64,000 nucleotides of DNA, from positions 2,969-66,968 of the forward strand of contig JAFPYS010000017.1 in the NCBI GenBank assembly GCA_017412085.1. Direction: 5' to 3'. Position 1 is the first letter of the stretch, and each line of letters starts with the position of its first letter. The position numbers were made by a program, and so were the translations under genes. Positions 26,213-43,935 of this stretch are shown one piece after another. The DNA is from Alphaproteobacteria bacterium (GTDB taxonomy: Bacteria; Pseudomonadota; Alphaproteobacteria; CAAHEQ01; UBA3637). Below the pieces are notes generated by a model that worked only from the letters and a program-made list of their open reading frames with translations, was not told the DNA's origin and ran no database searches.

Positions 26213-28192
26213 ATGTTTTATTTAACGGGTTTTCATTTAACAAGTGCACATACGAACAGATTGGCCAAATTGACCTCTTCTGCACCGTGGCCCGATAAAA
26301 ATAAGCCCCTGTTAAATCCCCAAAACATGCAAAAATTGCCTTTAAACACAGCGGTTTTGATTAAGGCGCCCTCGGAACAAGATCTTCAACAAATTTCTGC
26401 TTTGAATCCTGCCGCCATTGTTGATGCCAACGCACTTGACAGTTCTGTGCGCGACTTTTTGAAAAAAATGGACGGGTTAAAAAGCAAAAACAAATTGGGA
26501 TTTTTGTTAACCTGCCCCGTGATTTATGCTTGTAATGTAGCCCAAAACATTACGCGGGCCCTGCAACAATTTATTATACTGCCCGCCGAACAACAAGAAA
26601 GCATCCACTTTGCACTCCACGAATCCATTGTAAATGGGCTTATTCATGGTAATTTACAATTAAACAGTTCTATGCGTCAATCAGCGCGAGACTTTATTGA
26701 ATACGCACGCCTTTTACACGATCGTTTGAATGATCCAAGTTACGCACAAAAATCCATCAGCATCATTGCTGTTTGGAACACGAAAAAATTAGAAGTCAAA
26801 ATTCGCGATGAAGGCGCTGGTTACGGCGCAACCTCTGCGACAATTAAACAATCCTCAACGATGCAACATAAAACCGGGCGTGGAATTCGCATTATTGCTG
26901 GCGCGGCGGATTCATGTACTATTGAAGACTTTGGACGAGAAATTACATTGTCTTTCTTGTTGCAGGATCATCCTATTCAACGTTGGACGGACGGCTATAA
27001 AGAAGATGCAACATCTCAGTCCACGCTCATGTTGTCAAAAGACCTATCAACTTCAAAAGTGTTGGTGATAGAAGATAATCCAAGCACGCAAACAGTTCTG
27101 GGACGATTATTGAATTTAATTAATATTACTGATATCGCCTTTGCTTCCGATGGTGTGGAAGGGCTTAAACAGGCACAAGAAATGAAGCCGGATTTAATTA
27201 TTCTGGACATCACAATGCCAAGAATGGATGGATATGAAGTGATCCAACATCTTAAGGACAACAAAGAAACGGCGTCCATTCCCGTGCTCATTCAAACCGC
27301 TTCCGACAACCGAGAAACACGCGAAAAAACATTCCGCGCAGGTGCAACAGACTTTATTACAAAACCCATCAACCCGTTGGAATTTTTCTCTCGCGTACGT
27401 GTTCATTTGGAAAATCGTTTGCTGGTTCGTAACCTATCCAATCAATTAAATCAAATTGAGACCGAATTGCATGCCGCGCGCCGTATGCAGGTTGACATGT
27501 TACCTAAAGACAAAATGTTGAATGCTATCCGTGAAAATTATCATTTAAACATTGCGCATTATTTCGCCCCGTCTTCTTTGTTGGGGGGCGATTTTTGGCA
27601 GGTTATTCCCCTTTCATCCAACAAGATTGCCTTTTATATTTGCGACTTTTCCGGTCACGGAGTTGCCAGCGCTTTAAATACTTTCCGTCTGCATGCCCTC
27701 GTCAGCCAAAACAACAAGCGATTAACTTCACCCGCAGAATTTTTGGCGCAATTAAATTACCAAATGCATTTGTTATTGCCTCGCGGACAATTTGCTACCA
27801 TGTTCTTGGGTATCTATGATAAAAGGAAAAGAACATTGGTATACGCCGGCGCAGGAGCTCCAAATCCGATGCTCATCCATCGAAAAAAACAAACACTACT
27901 TGGCGCGGAAGGCATGCCTTTAGGTATCTTACCCAAACCCGTTTATCATGATAACACACTTAAACTTTCCAAAGGGGATTCATTGCTTTTGTACAGTGAT
28001 GCATTAACGGAATCTGTAACAACAAAAGGACAGCGGTTGGGTTTCCCGACATTTAAACGTATGGCCATTAAACGAATTTCCTCTGGCGATCCCACGGAAG
28101 GGTTGAACACTCTTTTGCAAGACTTTTTCAAACTTGTTCCTCCTCCACCACCCGATGATGTAACTGCTGTTTTGCTGCGGTGGGAGGGATAA
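26213..28192 (+). CDS. Multidomain signalling protein: unknown N-terminus, then an RsbW/SpoIIAB-type HATPase-like domain, a receiver (REC) domain and a PP2C (SpoIIE) phosphatase domain
   Basis: N-box-like ALHESIVNGLIHGN, G1-like IRDEGAGYG, G2-like GRGIRII. REC: KVLVIEDN...DLIILDITMPRMDG...FITKPI. SpoIIE: GGDFWQV...FYICDFSGHGVASAL...LYSDALTE. Confidence 0.8.
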   Translation: MFYLTGFHLTSAHTNRLAKLTSSAPWPDKNKPLLNPQNMQKLPLNTAVLIKAPSEQDLQQISALNPAAIVDANALDSSVRDFLKKMDGLKSKNKLGFLLTCPVIYACNVAQNITRALQQFIILPAEQQESIHFALHESIVNGLIHGNLQLNSSMRQSARDFIEYARLLHDRLNDPSYAQKSISIIAVWNTKKLEVKIRDEGAGYGATSATIKQSSTMQHKTGRGIRIIAGAADSCTIEDFGREITLSFLLQDHPIQRWTDGYKEDATSQSTLMLSKDLSTSKVLVIEDNPSTQTVLGRLLNLINITDIAFASDGVEGLKQAQEMKPDLIILDITMPRMDGYEVIQHLKDNKETASIPVLIQTASDNRETREKTFRAGATDFITKPINPLEFFSRVRVHLENRLLVRNLSNQLNQIETELHAARRMQVDMLPKDKMLNAIRENYHLNIAHYFAPSSLLGGDFWQVIPLSSNKIAFYICDFSGHGVASALNTFRLHALVSQNNKRLTSPAEFLAQLNYQMHLLLPRGQFATMFLGIYDKRKRTLVYAGAGAPNPMLIHRKKQTLLGAEGMPLGILPKPVYHDNTLKLSKGDSLLLYSDALTESVTTKGQRLGFPTFKRMAIKRISSGDPTEGLNTLLQDFFKLVPPPPPDDVTAVLLRWEG

Positions 28193-29824: not shown

Positions 29825-31090
29825 ATGTCACGTGATGTTATCATTTCTCGACTGTCTAATGGGATTCGCGTTATTACAGATACTCAACCTACTTTGGATT
29901 CTGTTACCCTAGGGGTATGGGTTGGCGTTGGTTCTCGGTTTGAAAAAAAATCTGAAAGTGGTATTTCTCATTTTTTGGAACATATGGCCTTTAAGGGGAC
30001 AACGACGCGTTCTGCCCTGCAAATTGCAAAAGAAATTGAACAGGTTGGTGGTTTCATTAATGCCTATACAGGTCAAGATGTTACCGCTTATCATGCTCGC
30101 ATGCTGAAAAAGGACATGGATATTGGGCTTAATATTATTGCGGATATAACTCAACATGCAATCATGGATGAAAAAGAGCTGAACACAGAAAAGGGTGTCA
30201 TCATCCAAGAAATTAATATGTATAAAGATCAACCTCACTACATGGCAGAGGTAAACTTTGACGCAACTGCATATCCCAATCAACCCTTGGGCAGAGAAGT
30301 GGCTGGAGATCCCGAAGTTATTCGTCAAATGACTCCCCAGAAAATGTTGGATTATGTTCATTCCCACTACGCCATGGATCGTATCGTTATCAGTGCTGTC
30401 GGCCCCATTCAGCATGATTCCTTTGTCAAAAAATGCGAAAGATTATTCTGCGATTTTACTTTAAAGAAAACACCAATATCAGAACCTGCACACTATCAAG
30501 GTGGATTTAAATATGTTAAAAAGCCGCATGAACAGGTTAATTTGATTGTTGGCTTTGAAGGTGAATCTTACACCTCTCCGGATATTTGGAAGGCGAAGTT
30601 ATTGGCCGCCATTTTGGGGGGCGGTATGACAAGCCGTTTATTCCAAGAAATTCGCGAAAAACGCGGCCTTGTTTATACCATTCATGCCTATGCTTCTGCG
30701 GAAACAGATACGGGTATTTGGGGCATTTATGCCGGCACTGGAGAAAAAGAATTACAAGTATTAATGCCGGTTTTGGTGGATGAGCTGAAAAAAGCGACGC
30801 ATAAAATTACAAAAGAAGAGGTTCAACAAGCACAAACACGTTTAGAGGCTGCTTTGTTAATGCGCAATGAAGATTTGCCCGAACATGCAGATACGAACGC
30901 CATTGAATTTTTGCGATATGGAAGAGTTCGTTCAAAAGCATCCTTGATAAAGGCAATTCGCGCCGTAACACCAAAAGAAATTCAACAATATGCCTCTCGC
31001 ATTTTTGCCACAAAACCAACGCTTTCCTGTCTGGGACCAATCAAACACATGATGTCCTATGATGATGTCATCAAACAACTGAGAAGTTAA
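29825..31090 (+). CDS. M16 (pitrilysin/MPP-like) zinc peptidase
   Basis: Inverted zinc motif HFLEHMAFKG plus a downstream Glu block EKGVIIQEI. 421 aa. Confidence 0.88.
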   Translation: MSRDVIISRLSNGIRVITDTQPTLDSVTLGVWVGVGSRFEKKSESGISHFLEHMAFKGTTTRSALQIAKEIEQVGGFINAYTGQDVTAYHARMLKKDMDIGLNIIADITQHAIMDEKELNTEKGVIIQEINMYKDQPHYMAEVNFDATAYPNQPLGREVAGDPEVIRQMTPQKMLDYVHSHYAMDRIVISAVGPIQHDSFVKKCERLFCDFTLKKTPISEPAHYQGGFKYVKKPHEQVNLIVGFEGESYTSPDIWKAKLLAAILGGGMTSRLFQEIREKRGLVYTIHAYASAETDTGIWGIYAGTGEKELQVLMPVLVDELKKATHKITKEEVQQAQTRLEAALLMRNEDLPEHADTNAIEFLRYGRVRSKASLIKAIRAVTPKEIQQYASRIFATKPTLSCLGPIKHMMSYDDVIKQLRS

Positions 31091-31714: not shown

Positions 31715-34700
31715 TTAAGGGGTGTAACTTGTTTGCGTTGGCACAACTGTCACATTCTTTTTCGCACTATTCACACAAGCTACTATACATTTTTTACCAT
31801 TACCATTAGAGATTGAGAATGTACATTTATTTCCATCGCCCACAAAAGTAACGTCGTCATCACGGGTCATCTTTGTTGCGCGAGCGCAATCTTTTCCATC
31901 ACCCTGTCCATCTCCATCACAAGCTGTGTTTTGTTCGGGTGTCCGGCAATAATTGTTTGGATCGTTATCCGGATCGCTATCTCGTGTTTCTGAAATATTG
32001 GAACACCATTTCTTCGTTCTTATATAGCTTGTAGAATCACTCTTTTTTGGTAAAATCGATCCCTCACATGTAAACTGCGCCCAGTCCCCCGCAATAAGGT
32101 CTCCATCAAATTTCAACTTATATCTCATCCCATTAACCGTCGTAAAGCTGAACAAGTTTCGTGTTTGACACGCTTGTTTATTGCAATTCGTCGTGACGTT
32201 TGAAGCAATACTGCTGACTTTGGCATCAACACACCGGCCGTTAACAACACCGTATCCCGATTTACACACGCACTTACCATTGTTATAAGTCGAATTCGCA
32301 TCACATGTCACGCATTTCTTTTGGCTAACATCATAGGTTGGTTTGGTGGAATCCGCCTCCGCACAAGTCTTACATTGCCCGTTATGGCATACTGGCGTTG
32401 CTTGAGGACACTTGCCATCACCATTCTTTTTGGAAGAGTCGTAATTAGCACTGCACGTACAAGTACCATCCTTACATAATGGTTTTGTTGCCGCACATGT
32501 TGTGCCAGACGAAGCGCCGTTGTTTGCAGTGCATTCAAGACAGCGACCAGTCTGGGAATCATAATTTGGTCTTTTTGTTGGACATTTGCATATTTTTTCT
32601 CCATTGTCGGACAAACATTCCTTCTCTCCAATGCAATGGGAATTTTCCGCACACACAACACATTTTCCATCGCCACTTGTATTAGTAACAGCACCTCTTG
32701 AATCTTTTACCAACCCAACAGAACATACTCTTCTTCCTTGCTTTTGAAATTCTGTTTTGGCCTTTTGGCGCGGCGAATAATTGTATGGAGAATTATCTTC
32801 CGTGTGTCCACTTCTGTCTTTATCTTCCTGCTCCACCTTGTTACACCCAAAATCCGTCCACGAGCCTGATACCGAATTATAGCAATTTACACATTTATTG
32901 TGATAGATATCCCAAACTTTAGCACCGGGGCATTTACAATCACCCGTCTCTTTGTCATATTCATTTGCGCCACAGTTTCGACCACATTCTCCCGTTGTTA
33001 ATTGACAATACGGCTTGGCATCCAGCTTGCAATCTTGGCTAGATCTACACTCTGAACACAAAAGCGTGTTTCCCGTACCCAAAACACAGTATGGTTTTTG
33101 AACACCATTTTCTGTTACATTTTCACACCCATGATTGGAGTTTATTTCTTTCCCATCCTCAATACAGCGGACGCAGCTATAATTGTTCAGATCACATACC
33201 TTTCCTTCCGCGCAATGGCTATCCGCCAAACATTCATAGCACACGCCATCTTTATAATGTGGTGTGCTGCCGCTGCAACTGACGCAACCGTCATCTGTAC
33301 ATATCTTACTTTCGGCCGCACAACTTTCAGCCGTACATGCCACGCAACGATTTTCGCCAGAACTATTAATCTCACAATATGGTTTTAAGGCATCGCTGCA
33401 ATGTGCATTCGTCCAACAAGATGCACAAACCCCTTCTTCATTAGTGTATTGTCCGTTTAGACAGCCACAGTAACCATGAACCTGTGCTTCGGATATTTCT
33501 TCCAACACATCCTTTGTGTAATCTGTGATATGATAATCCCCATCTGAAATATCGCAGCAAACATATCCTGCGGGAATGTTGCTTGTTACGTCTTCAGCTT
33601 TCACTTTTTTAGGCACGGCTCCCGATGGACAACCACACGCACGGATGCCATTTGATACATCTTCATCGCTGTCCCCCATGCCATAGTATTGTCCACGATT
33701 ATTGTTGTCGCAACACACGGTTAAAGACAACCCGCTGGCATCACTATATGTTCTTACGCTATACCCCACCGGGCACACATTACAATGTTCCGGATCTACC
33801 ACATTATACTCTTCATCGTCCTCGCTCCACGCATATCCTGTTGTTTTGTTACAGCAAATACCATTTAAAACTTCTACAGTGTCGTCTCCGTCTTGCGGGC
33901 AGCTGTTACACACAGATGGATTAAAAATTCTTACCCATTCCGTTTCTTGTTGAATATATTCATACCCGCCTTCACAACAAACAAATCCGTCTTCCGTTTC
34001 AACCGGCTCTGCATCGTCAGGGCACTCAATACAGGGATCTTCTTGACATTGGTCGCCACACCAGTGTCCGCCCGCGGTCGTGCAGTCTCCGCTGTTTCCA
34101 CAGGCCTCTGGATGGGTTGCCGAACATGTGGCCACACATTGATCATCTGCATCAAAAGCATATCCATCTTGACATTCGCAATCGTTCCATTCTAAGCTTG
34201 CACCACCTGGTTGCAACAAACGATTTCGCGCACAACATCTGAGACTATTCGTAGTTGACTTATCACGCACCTTCCATGTTTCTCCGTTATATGTAAAGGT
34301 TGGAGGGCAAGCACACAATGCATCATCTGATTCAGATATTTCAACACCAGATCCATCTAAACGTGTTGCCACGCTTTTGTGTCCCGAACAACACGCCCAC
34401 TCTCCATTCTCATTTGTGTTAAACGAAGTAACATAACCCGGGCATCCGCATTGCGGCAACAATACATAACTTTCAAAATCAGAACCATCCGATTTTGCTG
34501 GATGACCGTCCGAATTACAACAAGTTTGAACAGATCCAAACTCAACCCACGATCCGCCTAATGTTGTGCAATCAACTGCTGTTACCCCTCTGGTCGCGGA
34601 CGCAGACAACATTTTAGGCGTAAAAAGAAGATCAGATTCCTCTTCCGCTGCCGCCTCTTCTTCCTGCATCATTTCTTCTTCGGGATCTGTCAAGGTGCCA

Positions 34701-34876
34701 TCCGGCTCAACAATGGGCGTTATTAAGGCGCGTTCTGTCACGGGTAAAGTTGTGTATATATCCTGTATGGAACCATCTTGCCCAATACGAAAGGCAATAG
34801 ATTCCACTTCCGCCATCGCAAAGCGAGGCGACAACAACCCCAAACAAGCCATTAAAATAACAATTTTTATGCGCAT
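31715..34876 (-). CDS. Very large secreted cysteine-rich repeat protein (1053 aa, about 99 Cys)
   Basis: Signal peptide, then an acidic linker. Six to seven CxCP...CC modules are followed by CxxC-x-[HD]C-type repeats. The C-terminal domain is Cys-poor and carries a TSP3-like Asp-rich motif. Confidence 0.8.
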   Translation of the reverse strand: MRIKIVILMACLGLLSPRFAMAEVESIAFRIGQDGSIQDIYTTLPVTERALITPIVEPDGTLTDPEEEMMQEEEAAAEEESDLLFTPKMLSASATRGVTAVDCTTLGGSWVEFGSVQTCCNSDGHPAKSDGSDFESYVLLPQCGCPGYVTSFNTNENGEWACCSGHKSVATRLDGSGVEISESDDALCACPPTFTYNGETWKVRDKSTTNSLRCCARNRLLQPGGASLEWNDCECQDGYAFDADDQCVATCSATHPEACGNSGDCTTAGGHWCGDQCQEDPCIECPDDAEPVETEDGFVCCEGGYEYIQQETEWVRIFNPSVCNSCPQDGDDTVEVLNGICCNKTTGYAWSEDDEEYNVVDPEHCNVCPVGYSVRTYSDASGLSLTVCCDNNNRGQYYGMGDSDEDVSNGIRACGCPSGAVPKKVKAEDVTSNIPAGYVCCDISDGDYHITDYTKDVLEEISEAQVHGYCGCLNGQYTNEEGVCASCWTNAHCSDALKPYCEINSSGENRCVACTAESCAAESKICTDDGCVSCSGSTPHYKDGVCYECLADSHCAEGKVCDLNNYSCVRCIEDGKEINSNHGCENVTENGVQKPYCVLGTGNTLLCSECRSSQDCKLDAKPYCQLTTGECGRNCGANEYDKETGDCKCPGAKVWDIYHNKCVNCYNSVSGSWTDFGCNKVEQEDKDRSGHTEDNSPYNYSPRQKAKTEFQKQGRRVCSVGLVKDSRGAVTNTSGDGKCVVCAENSHCIGEKECLSDNGEKICKCPTKRPNYDSQTGRCLECTANNGASSGTTCAATKPLCKDGTCTCSANYDSSKKNGDGKCPQATPVCHNGQCKTCAEADSTKPTYDVSQKKCVTCDANSTYNNGKCVCKSGYGVVNGRCVDAKVSSIASNVTTNCNKQACQTRNLFSFTTVNGMRYKLKFDGDLIAGDWAQFTCEGSILPKKSDSTSYIRTKKWCSNISETRDSDPDNDPNNYCRTPEQNTACDGDGQGDGKDCARATKMTRDDDVTFVGDGNKCTFSISNGNGKKCIVACVNSAKKNVTVVPTQTSYTP

Positions 34877-34882
34877 ACTTTT

Positions 34883-34910
34883 ATTTTAACAGAACAGACG
34901 CAAAATGCAA
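34883..34910 (-). promoter_or_regulatory. Candidate promoter giving a leaderless mRNA for the Cys-rich gene
   Basis: On the minus strand: TTGCAT (34910-34905), 16 nt spacer, TAAAAT (34888-34883), then 6 nt to the ATG at 34876. No SD. Confidence 0.35.
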
Positions 34911-34918
34911 CAAAAAAA

Positions 34919-36046
34919 TTAACCCGTGCACAACGCCAACAAAATGCCGGCGGCAATGGCAGAGCCAATACTTCCCGCCACGTTAGCCCCCATCGCATGC
35001 ATAAGCAGATGGTTGTTTGGATTTTCTTCTTGCCCTAACTTCTCACTAACCCGCGCCGCCATTGGAATAGCGCTGACTCCAGCAGAACCTATCAACGGAT
35101 TAATTTTGTTCTTTGTGAACAGATTCAATAACCGCGCCATCAACACGCCGCTTGCCGTGCCAATACAAAATGCCACCACGCCCAGGGCCAAAACAATAAG
35201 CGTTTGTGTGCGCAAAAACAACTCTGCCGACAATTTTGAGCCAACAGAAATTCCCAACAAAATTGTAACAATATTCATCATTTCATTACTGGCGCCTTTT
35301 GCCAATCTGTCCGCCACACCGGATTCTTTCAACAGGTTACCAAACATCAACATACCAATCAAAGGAATCGCCAATGGGATAAACAAAGCCGTCAACACAA
35401 TCACCATAACTGGGAAAACAATTTTCTCCGCTTTGCTGACTTCACGAAGCTGCTGCATTTGAATGGCGCGTTGTTTTTTGGGGGTACAAAGGCGCATGAT
35501 CGGCGGCTGAATCACGGGCACCAACGCCATATAAGAATAAGCCGCTACTGCGATAGCCCCCAACAATTCTGGAGCCAACTTACCCGCCAAAAAGATGGAT
35601 GTCGGTCCATCTGCGCCGCCAATAATCGCAATACTGGCCGCCTGTTTTAATGTTAATGCCACATCCGGAAACAGACGCCCAATGGAAAGGGCGCCCAAAA
35701 ATGTCCCAAAAATGGCAAACTGCGCCGCGCCGCCTAAAAGTGCCGTTTTCGGATTTGCAAGCATCGGACCAAAGTCGATCATTGCGCCAACGCCCATAAA
35801 AATCAACAATGGGAAAATGCCCGTTTCAATGCCGGCATGATACATGTAATATAAAAGCCCGCCTTCTTCCGTCATTCCAGCCCCCGGGCAATTAGAAAGA
35901 ATTCCGCCAATCGCAATCGGAATCAACAAAAGTGGCTCAAACTGTTTTTTAATTCCTAAATACAGCAATACAAAACAAATCAGCATCATAATGCTTTGTC
36001 CCACCGTAATGTGCATTAAACCTAAGCTATCAATAATTGCGCCCAT
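34919..36046 (-). CDS. oadB: Oxaloacetate decarboxylase (Na+-pumping) beta subunit
   Basis: 375-aa polytopic membrane protein. The N-terminus ...[26 protein letters not shown] is typical of OadB/GcdB/MmdB. Confidence 0.9.
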
Positions 36047-36047
36047 A

Positions 36048-37316
36048 TTATTCTCCCTTCAACCACTTACAAATAGTTTTGTATGTCGGCGTTTTACATT
36101 TTGGTCCCATAATCACCACGGTCGGCACCACAGAAAACATCTTTTTTGCCACACGCTTTACATCTTTTAATGTCACAGATTTGTATCCTTTTACCATTTC
36201 TTCTGGCTGGATTATTCGACCAAATGTACCTAATTGATCCGCCATATTTCTTGCCCCAGCAGATAAATTATCTTCCCCGGAAGCTAACCCGACCAAATAT
36301 TCTTTTTTGACACGATTTAATTCTTCTTCGGAAACATCCGACTGAACTTTTTGACATTCTTTACAAATTAACTCTAATACCTCCGTTGTGTCTTGGGGTT
36401 TATTTTTCACCGAAATGCCCCAAAACCCAAAGGTTGGATAAATATTCTTATGTGACCAAATAGAATATGCTAAGCCTCTGTCCTCACGAATTTTAAACCA
36501 CAAACGCGAACTTGATCCTGTCGCCAAAATACCCATCAATAGAGTTTTTGCGTAATAGTCTTTTTCAGCACTTCCCTCATAGGGGAAAACAACTGTTTGC
36601 CAAATTTGGCTTTGCTTTTCTTCTATTTTTTTCTTCAATCCGCTAGCCGCATCAAAATGGTATTTCTTCGTTTTTTGTTTCTTTTGTAAAAAGGTTGAAA
36701 ACTGTTTTTCACAAAGTGATACAAATTTTTGATGAGTAATTCCTCCCCGTGCCGCAAGAATAATTTTATCAGTTGTATATTCGTGGCGCCAATATTTTCT
36801 CAAATCATCAGCTTTCAATCCTTTAATAATTTTCTCTGTTCCAAGCCCATCTAATGCAAGGGGTGTATTAGGATAAATTGATTCCATTACAAACCGAAAA
36901 TATTTACGATTAATATTGTCGGGTGCTTGTTTAATTTCATTAATCACAACACCTTTTTCAATCTCAAATCCTTTTTCTTCAAAGGCGGGCCGTGTTAACA
37001 TATTTGAAAACAAACGACATCCTTTTTCTAAATCCGTTTTTAATACGTTAATATAATAGTCTGTAAAAACACCACCCGTGCCGCCATTATGATAAATCCC
37101 CAGGTCTGCAAATGCCTTGCGCAATTTTTCGGAATTCATTTCCTTGGTTCCACGAAACATCATGTGCTCAATAAAATGCGCAATCCCTTTTTGATTTAAT
37201 GGCTCATCTTTACTGCCTGTTTGCACATACATATCAACAGACACCATTTTAGCGCCCTTGCGCTCGTCCGTTAAAACACGAATGCCATTTTTAAGAGTTG
37301 TGAGTTTAATTGTCAC
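36048..37316 (-). CDS. M16 (pitrilysin/MPP-like) zinc peptidase encoded between oadA and oadB
   Basis: [10 protein letters not shown] plus EKGVVINEI. The GTG start abuts the oadA TAA, with GGAGG 5 nt upstream. Its stop lies 1 nt from the oadB ATG. Confidence 0.88.
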
Positions 37317-39098
37317 TTATACCTCCGCGACTTTATCGCCCGTCTTGATGTTATCGCCCTTCTTCACGAACAGACGTTTTACTGTTCCTGCCGACGTTGC
37401 TTTAATGGGGGTTTCCATTTTCATTACTTCCACCACAACCAAAGTATCTCCCGTCTTCACAACTTGCCCTTCGGACACCAATACTTGCGTGACCATGCCT
37501 GGCATAGGTGCTAAAATCACACCACCGACGCTTGCCTTTGCTTCATTTTCTGTACCCTTGGGTGCTTCAATCTTCTCTTCACTAATTGTATATTCCTTCC
37601 CGTTGACAATCGCTTTGGATCCATCGAATTTTACTTCAAACTTCTCACCATTGATCGTGATAACAGAATCATTCGCTTTCGGTGCTGTCTTTGACTCACT
37701 CAATCGCACAGACACCTTTCCTTTACCAAGTAAGAAATCTATACCTTTCTGCCCACAAGCGGCCGCAATAAAAATATTCTCGTTTGTTGCCGGCAATCCC
37801 GCTTCCTTCAGCTGTTGCATATAATGTTTCTTTGACTTATTTGGATTCTTGTCATTGATGGCAAGCACCGTTTCCGTGGTGGGTTTTAATCCCAACTGTT
37901 CTGCCGCAATTTTTACCACCTTTGCGTCCGGCACAACGGGCGTTTTGCCAAAATATCCAAGCACCATCTTGCCATAACCTTCGGCCATCTTTTTCCACTT
38001 GCCATACATCACATTGTTGAAAGCTTGTTGAAAATAAAATTGGCTAACCGGTGTCACAGAGGTGCCAAAACCACCCTTTTGAACAACTTCCTGCATGGCG
38101 TCGATAATGGCGTTATATTTGTCCATAATATTGTTGTCGCGCAACATTTGTGTGTTCGCTGTTAAGGCGCCACCCGGCATGGGCGAAAAAGGAATTCTAG
38201 GATCCACATGTAAAGCTTCCGGTGGCAAATAGTATTTACTCAATGCGTCTTTTAAATCTTCTTCTACCTGCATCACCTTATCCACATCACATATAAGCTC
38301 ATACGGTTTACCACGCAGAGCGTGCCACATCGTTGCCACATCTGGCTGACACGTCCCCCCAGACACAGGTGCCAAAGATAAATCCACCGTATCTGCACCC
38401 GCTTCAATCGCCGCTAAATAACACGCCAAACCTGTTCCCGCCGTTTCGTGCGAGTGATAAGTAATCGGGCATCTTGGACCCACAATCTTACGCGCCTCAC
38501 GAATCGTTTCATATACCGTTTGCGGTGTTCCCGTGCCACTGGCATCTTTAAATGCCAGCGAATCAAATGGAATTTTGGCTTTGACAAAGGCCTTTAAGCG
38601 GTTGGCATAAAATTCGGCTGTGTGTGCCCCCGTCAATTTGGGCGGCAAACTCATCATCGCAATAGCCAACTGATGTTTCATGCCCGCCCTTTTAATGCAT
38701 TCGGCACTGTATTTTAAATTGTTGGGATCATTCAACGCATCAAAATTCCGAACCGTTGTCACGCCATGTTTTTTGAATAACTCTGCATGCAATTTAATCA
38801 AATCCGAACTCATAGAATCTAGCGCCACCACATTAACACCACGCGCCAACGTTTGCAGATTCGCCTTTGGACCAGCGGCTTTACGAAAAGCATCCATCAC
38901 ATCAAAAGCGTTTTCATTCAAATAGAAAAAGGCAGATTGAAATGCTGCACCACCGCCCGACTCCAAATAAGTTAAACCCGCCTTCACTGCTTCCGACACA
39001 ACGGGCAAGTAATCTTTACTTTGGACGCGCATTCCAAAAACCGATTGGAAACCATCGCGAAAAGCTGTACACATGATATTAATTTTTTTTGTTTTCAT
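37317..39098 (-). CDS. oadA: Oxaloacetate decarboxylase alpha subunit (carboxyltransferase plus biotinyl domain)
   Basis: N-terminus MKTKKINIMCTAFRDGFQS (TIM-barrel carboxyltransferase) and a C-terminal biotin site VVVEVMKMETPI. The start was chosen at the ATGA overlap with oadG. Confidence 0.9.
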   Translation of the reverse strand: MKTKKINIMCTAFRDGFQSVFGMRVQSKDYLPVVSEAVKAGLTYLESGGGAAFQSAFFYLNENAFDVMDAFRKAAGPKANLQTLARGVNVVALDSMSSDLIKLHAELFKKHGVTTVRNFDALNDPNNLKYSAECIKRAGMKHQLAIAMMSLPPKLTGAHTAEFYANRLKAFVKAKIPFDSLAFKDASGTGTPQTVYETIREARKIVGPRCPITYHSHETAGTGLACYLAAIEAGADTVDLSLAPVSGGTCQPDVATMWHALRGKPYELICDVDKVMQVEEDLKDALSKYYLPPEALHVDPRIPFSPMPGGALTANTQMLRDNNIMDKYNAIIDAMQEVVQKGGFGTSVTPVSQFYFQQAFNNVMYGKWKKMAEGYGKMVLGYFGKTPVVPDAKVVKIAAEQLGLKPTTETVLAINDKNPNKSKKHYMQQLKEAGLPATNENIFIAAACGQKGIDFLLGKGKVSVRLSESKTAPKANDSVITINGEKFEVKFDGSKAIVNGKEYTISEEKIEAPKGTENEAKASVGGVILAPMPGMVTQVLVSEGQVVKTGDTLVVVEVMKMETPIKATSAGTVKRLFVKKGDNIKTGDKVAEV

Positions 39099-39256
39099 TT
39101 GCCTCTCCTCGCACATGCAATAGCCACGGCCACTTTATCCAGCGACTCATCTTCTTTTACTGTAAATGCAAGCAATTTCATGGCACCAATTAATAACATC
39201 AAAAAGGCAAATACGCCCCCCATTCCTGCAATTGTGATAAATAATGCTTGATTCAT
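39095..39256 (-). CDS. oadG: Oxaloacetate decarboxylase gamma subunit (53 aa, single TM)
   Basis: Translated by hand: MNQALFITIAGMGGVFAFLMLLIGAMKLLAFTVKEDESLDKVAVAIACARRGK. GGGGGAG RBS. The position and size fit OadG. Absent from the ORF track because it is under 60 aa. Confidence 0.7.
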   Translation of the reverse strand: MNQALFITIAGMGGVFAFLMLLIGAMKLLAFTVKEDESLDKVAVAIACARRGK

Positions 39257-39305
39257 AGCTCCCCCTTAATACCAAAAGTTTAAGCTTTGATTCATCAAAA
39301 GTCAA

Positions 39306-40442
39306 TTATTTTGTTAAACAAAAACCGGTTAAAATAATCAAAAAGAAAAAGTTAAATGCAAAGAAAGTCTTTAAATAACTTTTTGTCTTATGTGGATAGC
39401 GTTTTGTATATTCTCTAAATGTAATTAAACTTGCCAAGGAAGCCACTAAGGTTCCTACCCCGCCGATATTGACTCCCACCAACAAATCGGGATAATTTTG
39501 TGTAAAGCGCGACAACAAAATGGCCGATGGCACGTTACTGATAAATTGACAAGAAATCACACTGACCAACAAAACGCTATATGACAAAATATGATCGAAG
39601 AATGCATGAACACTTTCCATTTGCGATATATTCCCTGCAAAAATAAAAAAACAAGAGAACGTACCTAATAATGGATAATCCAGTTTTTTTAATGCCCTTT
39701 TGTCCGTCATCCAAAGACATGCCGCAATGACAACAATGCCCATCACATATGGCACAATACGGAACACAATCGCAATAGCAAACGTAAATAACATAAGATA
39801 AAAGGTTGTTCTGCCCGGTGGCAATTTGATTTTTCTTTTTGGCAATTGCATCTTTTCTTTTTTTACAAAAATCCAACAACAAACAAAAATCAAGCTGACA
39901 GACACGGCAAATGGCGCAAACATAATCTTTATAAATTCATCGTTTGGAATATTAAAATATGAGTACAAAAACAAGTTTTGTGGATTTCCGAAGGGAGTTA
40001 ACATACCTCCTAAATTCGCTGCAATATTTTGCATCACAAAAGTAAAAGCCATATATTTTTCTTTTTTAGTAGAGGACAGCACAACAAAACCTAAAGGCAA
40101 AAAAGTGATTAATGCCATATCATTTGCAATAAGCATCGATCCAATAAATGTGATACAAACCAACGTGATGACGGCCGTTCTTGTATCCCCGGTTTTGGCA
40201 ATAATCCAACGTGCAATGCTTTTAAAAAAACGAATATTACGCAATGCCCCAATAACAGCCAATGTACCGAACAAACAGCCAATAGTGCGTCCATCCACAT
40301 AATTTAAATAGTTTACATTCGGCGGCACAAACAGACAACTGATGATAGCAGCAACGAAAGCCACTACAAAAACTACGTTTTTTTTCGCAAATGATTTCAG
40401 CCTCATACCTCGCATCATATACAAATATTCATCATAAATCAA
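39306..40442 (-). CDS. Anion permease of the ArsB/NhaD/citrate-transporter-like superfamily (start uncertain)
   Basis: About 10-12 hydrophobic segments and a two-fold repeat architecture. The first codon in the track is TTG. Internal Met codons at 40418 and 40406 are alternative starts. Confidence 0.7.
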
Positions 40443-40520
40443 GGCATTTTAAGCACACAAAATAATCGCTTGCTTTTCATGTGTTTTTATTTTATATTCT
40501 CGGTAAAGGGGGAACAACAA

Positions 40521-42329
40521 ATGATACAAAAATTACCAACAAAAAATAAAAAAGTTTTAGATTGGGTCAAGGAAATGGCCACTTTGTGCCAACCGGACAA
40601 CATTTATTGGTGTGATGGAACACAACAAGAATATTCTCGGCTGTGCAATGACTTAGTTAAAAGAGGCACCTTTATTAAATTAAATCCGAAGAAGCGTCCG
40701 AACTCATTTTTAGCGCGCTCTAATCCAAAGGATGTGGCTCGTGTTGAAGCTAGAACTTTTATTTGTTGTAAAAAAGAAATTGATGCCGGACCAACCAACC
40801 ATTGGGCCGATCCTCAAAAGATGAAAGCCACTTTAAAAAAGCTGATGAAGGGCTGTATGAAAGGACGCACAATGTACATTGTTCCTTTCTCTATGGGCCC
40901 TCTTGGTAGCCCCATTGCAAAAATTGGCATTGAAATTACAGACAGCGCTTACGTTGTTGCCAACATGCGCATCATGACCCGCATGGGAGCAAAAGTTTGG
41001 CCCGTTTTAGGCAACAAAGATTTCGTTAAATGTTTCCATTCTGTGGGCGCGCCCCTTAAAAAAGGTGAAAAGGACGTGGCTTGGCCATGCAATCCGGACA
41101 ACACTTATATCACTCACTTCCCAGAAACACGTGAAATTATTTCATTCGGCTCTGGTTATGGCGGCAATGCCTTGCTTGGCAAAAAATGTTTAGCCTTGCG
41201 CATCGCAAGCACGATGGCGCGTGATGAAGGTTGGTTTTCTGAACACATGTTGATTGCTGGCTTCGAAAATAAAAAAGAAAAAATGAAGGCTTATGTGGCG
41301 GCGGCATTTCCATCTGCTTGTGGCAAAACAAACATGGCCATGTTGATTCCACCAAAATCCATGCCTGATTGGAAAGTCACCACAGTTGGTGATGATATCG
41401 CCTGGATTAAACCAGATAAAAATGGCGTATTGCATGCAATTAACCCGGAAGCAGGATTCTTTGGCGTAGCACCTGGAACAAATCCAGAGACAAACAAAAA
41501 TGCTATTGAATCTTGCCGTGCCAATACCATTTTTACAAATGTCGCCTTAACTGACGATGGAGATGTGTGGTGGGAAGGGCTGACAAAAGTACCACCCAAA
41601 CATTTAATTGATTGGCAAGGTAATGATTGGACACCAAAGTCCACAACACCTGCAGCGCACCCGAATTCACGCTTTACGGCCCCCGCCAAACAATGTCCAT
41701 GCATTGACAAAGATTGGGAAAATCCAGCTGGCGTTCCCATCAGCGCATTTGTATTTGGTGGTCGTTTAGCAACAAACACGCCTCTTGTCTATCAGGCATT
41801 CAACTGGCAACATGGCGTATATTTGGCCAGCACAATGGGGTCAGAAAAAACAGCAGCCGCCGAAGGAAAAATGGGCGAAATTCGCCGCGATCCATTTGCC
41901 ATGCTTCCGTTCTGTGGATACAATATGGGTGATTATTGGAAACATTGGTTAGACATGTTTGGTCGCATTAAACAACATCCTTTATTCTTCCGCGTAAACT
42001 GGTTCCGCAAAGACAAAAAAGGTAAATTTATGTGGCCCGGTTTTGGCGACAACATGCGTGTCGTTGAATGGATTGTGCGCAGAACTTATAATAAAGTTGG
42101 CGCCAAAGAGACTGTGTTAGGTTGGATGCCAAACTATAAAGATATGACTTGGCGCGGTCTTAAAATGACGGAAAAACAATTTGATGATTTGATGGCTGTG
42201 GATAAAAAATTGGCATTACAAGATGTCAATGCTCAAGGTGAATATTTCGAACAATTTTTGCCAGGCGACAGATTGCCATCGGACATGGATGCCGAGTTGG
42301 TGTTATTAGCCGACCGATTGAACCGTTAA
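40521..42329 (+). CDS. pckG: Phosphoenolpyruvate carboxykinase (GTP)
   Basis: Start at [10 protein letters not shown] after AAGGGGGA. Kinase-1a motif FPSACGKTN. Conserved blocks GDDIAW and NSRFT. 602 aa. Confidence 0.95.
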
Positions 42330-42336
42330 AAAAATA

Positions 42337-42366
42337 AATCCCGCCCAGATGGACGGGATTTTTTTA
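42337..42366. terminator. Bidirectional terminator between pckG and the NYN-like gene
   Basis: AATCCCG (42337-42343) pairs with CGGGATT (42354-42360), followed by a T-run. Confidence 0.8.
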
Positions 42367-43935
42367 TTTTCCGTATGTGCCACGACTCTTAGTTATAATT
42401 TTGTGGGCAAGACGTTTATGCTTAACGCGTTTTTGACCCCAGCGCTCCTCCTTGCTAGGCCTCTTCGGAACAAAACCCGCATATGCTTCCTCTTCATCTT
42501 CCGCCTCCATACGTGCACTGTTACGTCTTTCTTGTTGAAGCCGTCTTAACCGCTCATGCTTTTCCTTTTCATTTTGTTTTCGAACGGCGGCTTTTTCTTC
42601 ATGTCGTGAGGTTAATTTTCCTAAATCAACAGGTATTTGCAGCACGTCTTCTACGCCTCGTTCCAATCGTACAGATAACCATTGAGAGTTTTCTTCCAAA
42701 CACAGTAAAGAAACAGATAATCCCGCACGCCTCGCTTGTTCAACAGAATGTACAAAATCACCATCTGTTGACAACAAATATACACGATTTATCATTGGAT
42801 TTATTCTGGCTAACGCCATATCGTATGCAATACGATCGTCCACATCATATTGGCGAAAGTTTGATACAAAATCTTCTTTCAAACGCGCCCTTGGATGAAC
42901 AAACCATTTTTCTTTTTTCAAAATCGCTGGAAAATTCTTATCCAATTGTGTTTTGCCCAAACTAAAACGTACTCCAGGAAATGACGCCCCTTTGCTCAAG
43001 TCAAATTCAAAAGGTCTTTCATCGGACACCCAAACGCTATTGCGTGCATTTTCTGTTGGAATGGTCGCATGATAAAGAATGGTTTGAGTAGCTTTTTCCG
43101 GCAAAAAATCTTGAATTTGATGCACTAGTTTTTCCACATTTTGCACACTCATGCGTAATTCGCGTCTGTGCAAATATTGCCGCACACTACCCATATCCAT
43201 CATCAACAGTGCCTCTTGATCCTCGTTTTCCATTACCCCGCGCAATAACCCAAGACAACGCGATAAGGTTTCTCCACGTGCCCACGGCTGCCGCAAAGAT
43301 TCAGAAACTTCTTCCAAAATATTTTTTGAACAAACAACGGGATTTCCCTCTTGAGAAAACTCGCAAATATACGGATTCTTTCCATCAAACAATACTTGGC
43401 TAATGGGCATTCCCAAACCATTGGTCGTTGCTAACGCGTATGTCATATCGTCCGCATCGCCATACACAAACAAGCGATTTTCGCGGTGACACACGGCCTT
43501 TTCCGCCATTTCATCTACTAATTGCGTCAATAACCCCTTTGGTTGTTCATTTAAAGAAAAATCTCTGTCTTCCAGTTTTGTTTTATTATAACTGGTCGGG
43601 TTCATCACCCACGCCTGATCAAAAGGATAATATACCCGACTCCAATGCGTTTTTAATTCTGAATTTGGTAAAGTCGCCAAACGCATATTCTCTTTTATAT
43701 CCACATCTGGATATCGCTCACCCGATACAGGCATCACGGCATCATCCACCGCGCAAACACCATAGTAATCAACGCCAATATCCGTGTTGGGAAACTTTTG
43801 CCGAATCTCGGATACCATATAATACAAATATTTTAACACAGTTTGGGAGCTGTGTTGTTCTCCCTGACTCAATATATGTCGTTTCAAAACTTCCCCATCC
43901 ACCAAAAGGGATGCTTTCTGCTTTTTAATCTCCAT
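42364..43935 (-). CDS. Hypothetical protein with NYN/LabA-like (PIN-like nuclease) motifs and a basic C-terminal tail
   Basis: Residues 400-440 read DDRIAYDMALARINPMINRVYLLSTDGDFVHSVEQARRAGLSVSLL, which fits LabA/NYN. A second, weaker set lies N-terminal (ASLLVDGEVL...LFVYGDADDM). The ATG lies 9 nt after the rho stop. Confidence 0.6.
   Translation of the reverse strand: MEIKKQKASLLVDGEVLKRHILSQGEQHSSQTVLKYLYYMVSEIRQKFPNTDIGVDYYGVCAVDDAVMPVSGERYPDVDIKENMRLATLPNSELKTHWSRVYYPFDQAWVMNPTSYNKTKLEDRDFSLNEQPKGLLTQLVDEMAEKAVCHRENRLFVYGDADDMTYALATTNGLGMPISQVLFDGKNPYICEFSQEGNPVVCSKNILEEVSESLRQPWARGETLSRCLGLLRGVMENEDQEALLMMDMGSVRQYLHRRELRMSVQNVEKLVHQIQDFLPEKATQTILYHATIPTENARNSVWVSDERPFEFDLSKGASFPGVRFSLGKTQLDKNFPAILKKEKWFVHPRARLKEDFVSNFRQYDVDDRIAYDMALARINPMINRVYLLSTDGDFVHSVEQARRAGLSVSLLCLEENSQWLSVRLERGVEDVLQIPVDLGKLTSRHEEKAAVRKQNEKEKHERLRRLQQERRNSARMEAEDEEEAYAGFVPKRPSKEERWGQKRVKHKRLAHKIITKSRGTYGK

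Follow-up and report, generated by a model that had tools for sequence, protein, structure and literature searches.

A 64-kb stretch of a metagenome-assembled genome (MAG), hereafter the window, carries genes for the gamma, alpha and beta subunits of a predicted Na+-translocating oxaloacetate decarboxylase (OAD; oadG, oadA and oadB). These genes are tightly coupled in translation and face a divergent gene for GTP-dependent phosphoenolpyruvate carboxykinase (PEPCK; pckG), and the sequence bears out a preliminary description that had proposed such a pump here. With moderate confidence, we read the locus as a coupled oad operon under its own promoter, whose product would act with GTP-PEPCK to convert phosphoenolpyruvate (PEP) to oxaloacetate, with a gain of GTP, and then oxaloacetate to pyruvate, with export of Na+. 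This reading builds on observed gene identities and catalytic residues, a conserved promoter, a split between core and accessory genes, and a recurrent linkage of PEPCK and OAD genes.

The window bears the NCBI label ‘Alphaproteobacteria bacterium’ (proteins MBQ3695973-82). The host had been taken to be an alphaproteobacterium and this stands: the window belongs to a gut or rumen alphaproteobacterial MAG, its closest relatives being MAGs from goat, yak and other rumen or gut samples. TrcR and ELM1-like genes, which are typical of Alphaproteobacteria, are also present.

Decarboxylase subunits and the linked PEPCK

Judged by its sequence, OadB is a bona fide beta subunit of a Na+ pump. It matches PF03977 (1.4e-154), scores 535.6 bits with TIGR01109, whose cut-off is 190.6, and aligns with Salmonella OadB (6iva) at 455 bits. 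In this alignment D146, Y172, N316, G320, S325 and R332 correspond to D203, Y229, N373, G377, S382 and R389 (St/Kp numbering), and all six residues that are essential in the Salmonella and Klebsiella enzyme are thus present. The window protein differs from its Salmonella counterpart by the lack of an insert of about 40 residues (62-104 of the Salmonella protein).

By alignment, OadA keeps the metal ligands of transcarboxylase 5S, as D15, K184, H215 and H217, and the catalytic Thr of pyruvate carboxylase, as T349. The biotin site is an MKM motif at K560 (EVMKMET, 557-563; Biotin_lipoyl, 2.3e-16). The family scores are undecided: OadA reaches 323.4 bits with TIGR01108 (the oadA equivalog, cut-off 756.5) and 318.4 bits with the PycB model NF006761 (cut-off 402), and is therefore equidistant from the two and below both cut-offs. 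Among PDB entries it is closest to the beta subunit of a two-subunit pyruvate carboxylase (5ks8, 213 bits), followed by transcarboxylase 5S (193 bits) and then Vibrio OadA (165 bits). The preliminary description would have been refuted if alpha grouped with PycB or another biotin enzyme and beta with a different decarboxylase; by score alpha leans neither way, and beta is clearly of the Na+-pump type.

These scores are what speaks for another assignment, in which alpha would be the PycB of a two-subunit pyruvate carboxylase or a transcarboxylase 5S, served by an unlinked biotin carboxylase, with oadG and oadB incidental or serving another carboxybiotin protein. We consider this highly improbable, since the alpha gene is coupled to oadG through an ATGA overlap and, via an M16 peptidase gene (here M16b), to oadB; since oadB comes directly after the alpha homologue in 76 of 80 loci from many phyla; and since a beta subunit whose Na+ and carboxybiotin residues are intact must have a source of carboxybiotin. 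In addition, the scan of the window, which took in 54 open reading frames (ORFs) of at least 150 aa and with them all those of 300 aa or more, found no biotin carboxylase. It is this genomic context that leads us to assign OadA as the OAD alpha subunit, within a divergent alpha subfamily typical of anaerobes.

OadG passes the PF04277 cut-off (30.9 bits against 27) and falls short of that of TIGR01195 (19.3 against 36). It has a single N-terminal transmembrane helix (hydrophobic residues 5-23) followed by a 20-aa tail. The enterobacterial gamma subunit has about 83 aa, compared with 53 aa in the window.

The classical OadGAB enzymes of Klebsiella, Salmonella and Vibrio (EC 7.2.4.2; 6iva for beta-gamma, 2nx9 for alpha) therefore share with the window the gamma-alpha-beta order, a 5S-type alpha subunit with its metal site and C-terminal MKM biotin domain, and the six beta residues. 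The window locus departs from them in its distant alpha subunit, as the score with the Vibrio protein indicates, in the lack of a citrate-fermentation context and in the M16 gene between alpha and beta.

The product of pckG is, by its sequence scores, a clear GTP-PEPCK: it has PEPCK_N and PEPCK_GTP domains and reaches 966.4 bits with NF003253, whose cut-off is 504. In the nine related genomes in which it was aligned, its identity is 86-96%. Two further groups show a linkage of this enzyme to OAD, each independently: a Lentisphaerae-like genome from the human gut (UMGS1084; L036, 4972-11651) has pckG-birA-oadG-oadA-oadB on one strand, and five spirochaete loci have oadG-oadA-oadB-pckG in one direction. 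These belong to a wider group of anaerobe-type oadGAB loci (L011-L082; Gastranaerophilales, Spirochaetota, Lentisphaerota, Planctomycetota and Fibrobacter), whose alpha and beta subunits are 49-58% and 55-67% identical to those of the window. There oadA and oadB are adjacent, and the spirochaete and Lentisphaerae-like loci also have a linked PEPCK, which is co-directional rather than divergent; birA is an addition of the Lentisphaerae-like locus. None of these loci has an M16 peptidase or the window’s permease in the operon.

Two further features of these loci were seen. The longest oadB ORF of L036 has a 250-aa N-terminal extension, and four spirochaete loci (L024, L032, L073 and L075) show a second, separate biotinyl-domain match between oadA and oadB, which may be an extra biotin carrier gene.

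Conserved core, variable slots and operon signals

The comparison of the locus took in 13 related genomes of gut and rumen origin, both species representatives and metagenome contigs. The pckG, oadA and oadB proteins are 86-96% identical across the inner clade (10 loci), where synonymous sites are saturated (pS 0.63-0.74); the arrangement of pckG and oadG-oadA-oadB has therefore been kept over a long divergence. The interval between pckG and oadG could be read in 11 related genomes (L003-L009, L083/L084, L091 and L092), L093 beginning too near oadG for this slot. In all 11, which have the upstream flank, pckG is divergent from oadG with a variable slot between them. The core of the locus is thus pckG divergent from oadG-oadA-oadB, while the permease and M16b are lineage-specific accessory genes. 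The preliminary description had treated permease to oadB as one block, and as a unit this is not conserved.

Two slots account for the variation. Between pckG and oadG, the window has the permease, L005 and L083/L084 have the permease together with an unrelated ORF, L003, L091 and L092 have unrelated ORFs, and L009 has nothing. Between oadA and oadB, an M16 peptidase occupies the slot in the window, L003, L005, L083/L084, L091, L092 and L093; an ABC transporter takes its place in L009, and L004, L006, L007 and L008 have nothing (0-2 nt). The oadA|oadB junction seems to tolerate or attract insertions.

The ORFs found in the pckG-oadG slot measure 375-538 aa (L003, 6208-7824; L083, 8490-9866; L091, 4457-5911; L092, 2613-3911; L005, 5459-6586). 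Those of L003, L083 and L091 match no Pfam family and that of L092 has no precomputed Pfam hit; the L003 ORF has hydrophobic stretches, and the L005 ORF a signal-peptide-like N-terminus. The ABC-transporter gene of L009 (9778-11607, 609 aa) sits exactly in the oadA|oadB slot and overlaps both neighbours.

All six ORFs were found on the strands first given for them (Table 1). Start codons were set by the gene calls on the identical public contig and by homologues, not by the longest ORF. This moved three of them downstream, to ATG 39098 for oadA, ATG 40418 for the permease (NCBI’s 366-aa version implies an alternative start at 40406) and ATG 40521 for pckG, and left the genes and junctions otherwise as described. 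As the longest-ORF starts lay too far upstream, the divergent spacer between pckG and the permease is about 102-114 nt and not the 80 nt or so first reported. The other junctions were read as they had been given: 49 nt from the permease TAA to the oadG ATG, the ATGA overlap of oadG and oadA at 39098-39095, the oadA TAA directly adjoining the GTG of M16b (37317/37316), 1 nt from the M16b TAA to the oadB ATG, and 42 nt from oadB to a Cys-rich giant gene. Rfam and tRNA scans of the block gave no match.

Table 1. Genes and candidate regulatory elements of the oad locus, with positions in the window
Feature	Position	Strand	Description
Putative promoter of the Cys-rich giant gene	34883..34910	-	TTGCAT-16-TAAAAT
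oadB	34919..36046	-	375 aa; Na+-translocating carboxybiotin decarboxylase; PF03977, TIGR01109
M16b	36048..37316	-	422 aa; M16B-type zinc peptidase; PF00675 + PF05193
oadA	37317..39098	-	593 aa; carboxyltransferase and biotin carrier; HMGL-like, PYC_OADA, Biotin_lipoyl
oadG	39095..39256	-	53 aa; short gamma subunit; PF04277
oad promoter	39277..39305	-	sigma-70-like TTGACT-17-TAAACT; conserved
Permease	39306..40418	-	370 aa; IT superfamily; PF03600 CitMHS; accessory gene
pckG	40521..42329	+	602 aa; GTP-dependent PEP carboxykinase; NF003253, PEPCK_N + PEPCK_GTP
Hairpin terminator	42336..42361	-	between the convergent pckG and NYN-domain gene

The 49-nt gap between the permease and oadG had been described as free of hairpins, which is correct, yet it is not empty. 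It holds the oad promoter, which scores 9/12 in a promoter scan and lies immediately before the oadG ribosome-binding site. All 10 aligned related genomes share the -35 TTGAC without change and have a TAAAAT-like -10, regardless of the gene upstream. The oad operon thus has a start of its own. Neither the 49-nt nor the 42-nt gap shows a terminator-like site or a significant RNA fold; as the former lacks a terminator, read-through from the permease into oad is possible, but it is not needed.

Translation signals are built into the coding ends. A GGGGGAG Shine-Dalgarno precedes oadG. The last codons of oadA, GCGGAGGTATAA, carry a Shine-Dalgarno for the next gene, and this end (GCGGAGGTnTAA) supplies it to whichever gene follows. 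M16b in turn ends in AAGGGAGAATAA (encoding ...KGE), codons that serve as the Shine-Dalgarno of oadB. Since the end of M16b recreates this signal, the insert keeps the translational coupling.

Downstream, the Cys-rich giant gene has no Shine-Dalgarno and is preceded by an element of the form TTGCAn-16/17-TAAAAT, which ends 6 nt before its ATG and is conserved in the window, L003, L004, L008 and L091. This fits, and suggests, the leaderless promoter that had been proposed for the gene. The putative promoter would set the functional 3' boundary of the oad operon, despite the lack of a terminator. The strongest terminator-like site in the region from 31.5 to 42.6 kb is the hairpin beyond pckG, with 11 pairs (6 of them G-C) and flanking T-runs.

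The permease itself matches the Pfam family PF03600 CitMHS (101.9 bits, 5e-29), and a PDB sequence search with it gave no match. The AlphaFold2 model (predicted local distance difference test score, pLDDT, of 83) has its best Foldseek matches in Pho90, VcINDY, NaDC3, NaS1 and ArsB, which places the predicted fold in the IT/DASS/ArsB group; carriers of phosphate, sulfate, dicarboxylate and arsenite are equally near (11-17% identity), and the substrate is not assignable from this modelled fold. By curated scores the protein is neither NhaD nor ArsB: it lies below the cut-offs of the NhaD models (34.2 bits against 80, and 32.3 against 577), and ArsB models gave no match at E<0.01. The gene is found only in the window, L005 and L083/L084, that is, in three of the 11 related genomes read. 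Its nearest relatives outside the clade are in gut Clostridia (60-66% identity), which suggests that it was horizontally acquired. Beside two of the Clostridial homologues, whose neighbourhoods offer no metabolic hint, citrate or C4-acid genes were not seen.

The original proposal on the source of oxaloacetate was drawn from the layout of the block. In it an imported citrate or C4-dicarboxylate, with the permease as a functional part, would yield oxaloacetate for OAD as in citrate or tartrate fermentation. We judge this unlikely. The CitMHS match and the DASS-type fold, which is common to the Na+/dicarboxylate carriers VcINDY and NaDC3, agree with it, but the same fold is also used by phosphate, sulfate and arsenite carriers, and the closest outside homologues lack a citrate or C4 context. 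The position of the gene, 49 nt upstream of oadG on the same strand with no terminator, also speaks for it; however, the conserved oad promoter separates the two, and the permease is missing from eight of the 11 relatives in which the interval was read. Classical OADs do serve citrate fermentation (PMC8100219), whereas citrate lyase, malate dehydrogenase and aspartate aminotransferase were not found in the window. With an accessory permease, an intervening promoter and no oxaloacetate-forming enzymes nearby, the proposal is not supported.

Proposed route from PEP to pyruvate and its direction

In the route that we favour, PEPCK would carboxylate PEP (PEP + GDP + CO2 to oxaloacetate + GTP). OadA would then transfer the carboxyl group of oxaloacetate to its own biotin and release pyruvate, and the carboxybiotin would swing to the membrane subunit OadB, which would decarboxylate it and use the free energy to expel Na+; the short OadG would anchor and stabilise the complex. 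The net reaction of the pump would be oxaloacetate to pyruvate and CO2, with Na+ export. In a CO2-rich gut, these two steps could substitute for or supplement pyruvate kinase, and the energy that pyruvate kinase wastes between PEP and pyruvate would be stored as a sodium-motive force that could drive transport or ATP synthesis. In models of Clostridium thermocellum, OAD reportedly acts as a pyruvate-kinase bypass.

A PEPCK-to-OAD route for sodium-motive force has already been proposed in Ca. Epulopiscium viviparus (PMC10756260). The scheme is shared, with a PEPCK that yields a nucleoside triphosphate and then a Na+-pumping OAD in a non-respiring, fermentative gut organism. In the window, by comparison, the host is alphaproteobacterial, the PEPCK is of the GTP type and is physically linked to oad, and the route is proposed from the genes.

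The direction of flux, the coupling to Na+ in vivo and the use of the gradient are what we infer from these genes. PEPCK operates near equilibrium and carboxylates in capnophiles and CO2-rich habitats, and the free-energy change of the OAD reaction is about -34 kJ/mol, with up to 2 Na+ pumped (PMC8100219). Given the PEPCK-OAD linkage, a near-equilibrium PEPCK and an exergonic OAD, the direction from PEP through oxaloacetate to pyruvate is the best supported.

Several points weigh against this reading. OadA, as set out above, scores far below the oadA cut-off and is as near to PycB and transcarboxylase 5S as to Vibrio OadA, and OadG is unusually short and below the TIGR01195 cut-off. As pckG is divergent here, it is not co-transcribed with the oad genes, and in the distant alphaproteobacterial relatives L002 and L010 oadGAB occurs with no PEPCK within 8-10 kb. 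The 64 kb in view are only a part of the genome, which may elsewhere encode pyruvate kinase, pyruvate, phosphate dikinase, malate dehydrogenase, aspartate aminotransferase, citrate lyase, a Na+-type ATP synthase or an unlinked pycA. Finally, PEPCK could equally run gluconeogenically.

In a reverse use of the same enzymes, an existing Na+ gradient would drive OAD to carboxylate pyruvate and PEPCK would then make PEP, in an anaplerotic or gluconeogenic sense. The OAD Na+ pump is said to have been reversed in proteoliposomes, by Dimroth and Hilpert in 1984, but we know of no physiological case of net OAD reversal. PEPCK is classically gluconeogenic (PMC8100219) and gut CO2 is high. Genomes of Rs-D84 reportedly have no upper glycolysis and may take up pyruvate (PMC12306168); reversal would supply PEP and C4 skeletons to an organism that imports pyruvate. 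Reversal would, however, have to work against a strongly exergonic decarboxylation, and would require another strong primary Na+ pump, of which none was seen in the window, the relatives being reported to lack respiration. We rate reverse use as distinctly unlikely.

The PEP-to-pyruvate direction would suit the reduced, non-respiring Alphaproteobacteria described from the gut (PMC12306168, PMC13196213). The rumen alphaproteobacterial orders RF32 and Rs-D84 are described as metabolically reduced and possibly partner-dependent (PMC12306168, PMC13196213), although the window’s MAG is not assigned to either here. In related reduced gut Alphaproteobacteria no tricarboxylic acid cycle or respiration is reported, and some keep F1Fo (PMC12306168). 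Literature searches on RF32, Rs-D84 and Enterousia turned up no statement on OAD. If the route operates, it would equip these uncultured Alphaproteobacteria of gut and rumen with a primary ion pump, and would explain how some members use a retained ATP synthase or Na+-coupled uptake. It would also predict a dependence on Na+ and CO2, which could guide cultivation. The enzyme type and the logic of the pathway are already known, and the host is little studied; the linkage of PEPCK and OAD in three phyla supports the pyruvate-kinase bypass as a common energy saver of gut anaerobes.

The M16 peptidase gene and other neighbours

The one unusual feature of the oad operon is the lineage-specific M16 peptidase gene inside it. 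The preliminary description held that all the enzymes of the block act on oxaloacetate, which is not true of this one. M16b has the zinc motif HFIEH at 47-51, and E120 and E127 are invariant in five of five aligned sequences; its best PDB sequence matches are a bacterial protein deposited as ‘Processing protease’ (3hdi, 149 bits) and the beta subunit of the mitochondrial processing peptidase (MPP-beta, 133 bits). With HFIEH and the Glu residues beyond it, M16b is likely to be active as an M16B peptidase. Like 3hdi and MPP-beta, it has about 420 aa, two domains, HxxEH and a downstream Glu, and it differs from M16B peptidases in having its gene inside an energy-pump operon and in evolving faster than its housekeeping paralogue M16a. 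The protein is probably cytoplasmic, because its N-terminus has no signal-peptide-like hydrophobic stretch.

The M16b family is small, with about 11 clusters among 5.8 billion proteins, and the next matches (31-33% identity) are housekeeping M16 genes elsewhere. Eight genomes, the window included, carry M16b and five do not, and where present it is always in the oadA|oadB junction. Its nonsynonymous divergence (dN) is 3-5 times that of oadA, and it evolves 2-3 times faster than M16a, except for its first 25 and last 45 residues, which are nearly invariant. Genomes with and without M16b interleave on a neighbour-joining tree of OadA and OadB, whose inner-clade support is at most 146 of 200 replicates; gains and losses of M16b are not countable on a tree so poorly resolved. 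The idea that M16b is a recombining hypervariable cassette was dropped, as saturated synonymous sites make dN/dS unreliable; what is supported is a faster-evolving gene.

We read M16b as an accessory gene slotted into the oad operon. A more specific role in the Na+ pump, either as a lineage-specific component or as a factor dedicated to its processing or assembly, M16b then being made in a fixed stoichiometry to OadA and OadB, would be compatible with its restriction to the oadA|oadB junction, its coupling on both sides and its conserved termini, but its patchy presence weighs against this and we hold the role to be very doubtful. A parallel could be drawn with the M16 ‘core’ or processing-peptidase subunits of the mitochondrial bc1 complex, the host being a relative of the mitochondrial ancestor, although the analogy is a very speculative one.

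The paralogue M16a (HFLEH) lies 5 kb from M16b, at 29825-31090 on the plus strand, and is 79-86% conserved. In L093 (5160-6424) it is split into two ORFs of 191 and 230 aa, while M16b is intact there; pseudogenisation or an assembly error is possible.

The Cys-rich giant gene (31715-34876, minus strand) encodes 1053 aa with a signal-peptide-like N-terminus. It evolves very fast, with 29-41% amino-acid identity between relatives whose OAD proteins are 90-95% identical. In L083 (15733-17185), and likewise in L084, an N6_N4_Mtase DNA methyltransferase and an IceA-type endonuclease lie between oadB and the giant gene.

On the other side of the locus, convergent with pckG and sharing with it the terminator listed in Table 1, a gene at 42364-43935 (minus strand) encodes a fast-evolving NYN-domain protein of 523 aa (32-56% identity). 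A further gene in the window (26213-28192, plus strand) encodes a 659-aa protein that combines an HATPase_c_2 anti-sigma-kinase-like domain, a response-regulator receiver domain and a SpoIIE/PP2C phosphatase domain.

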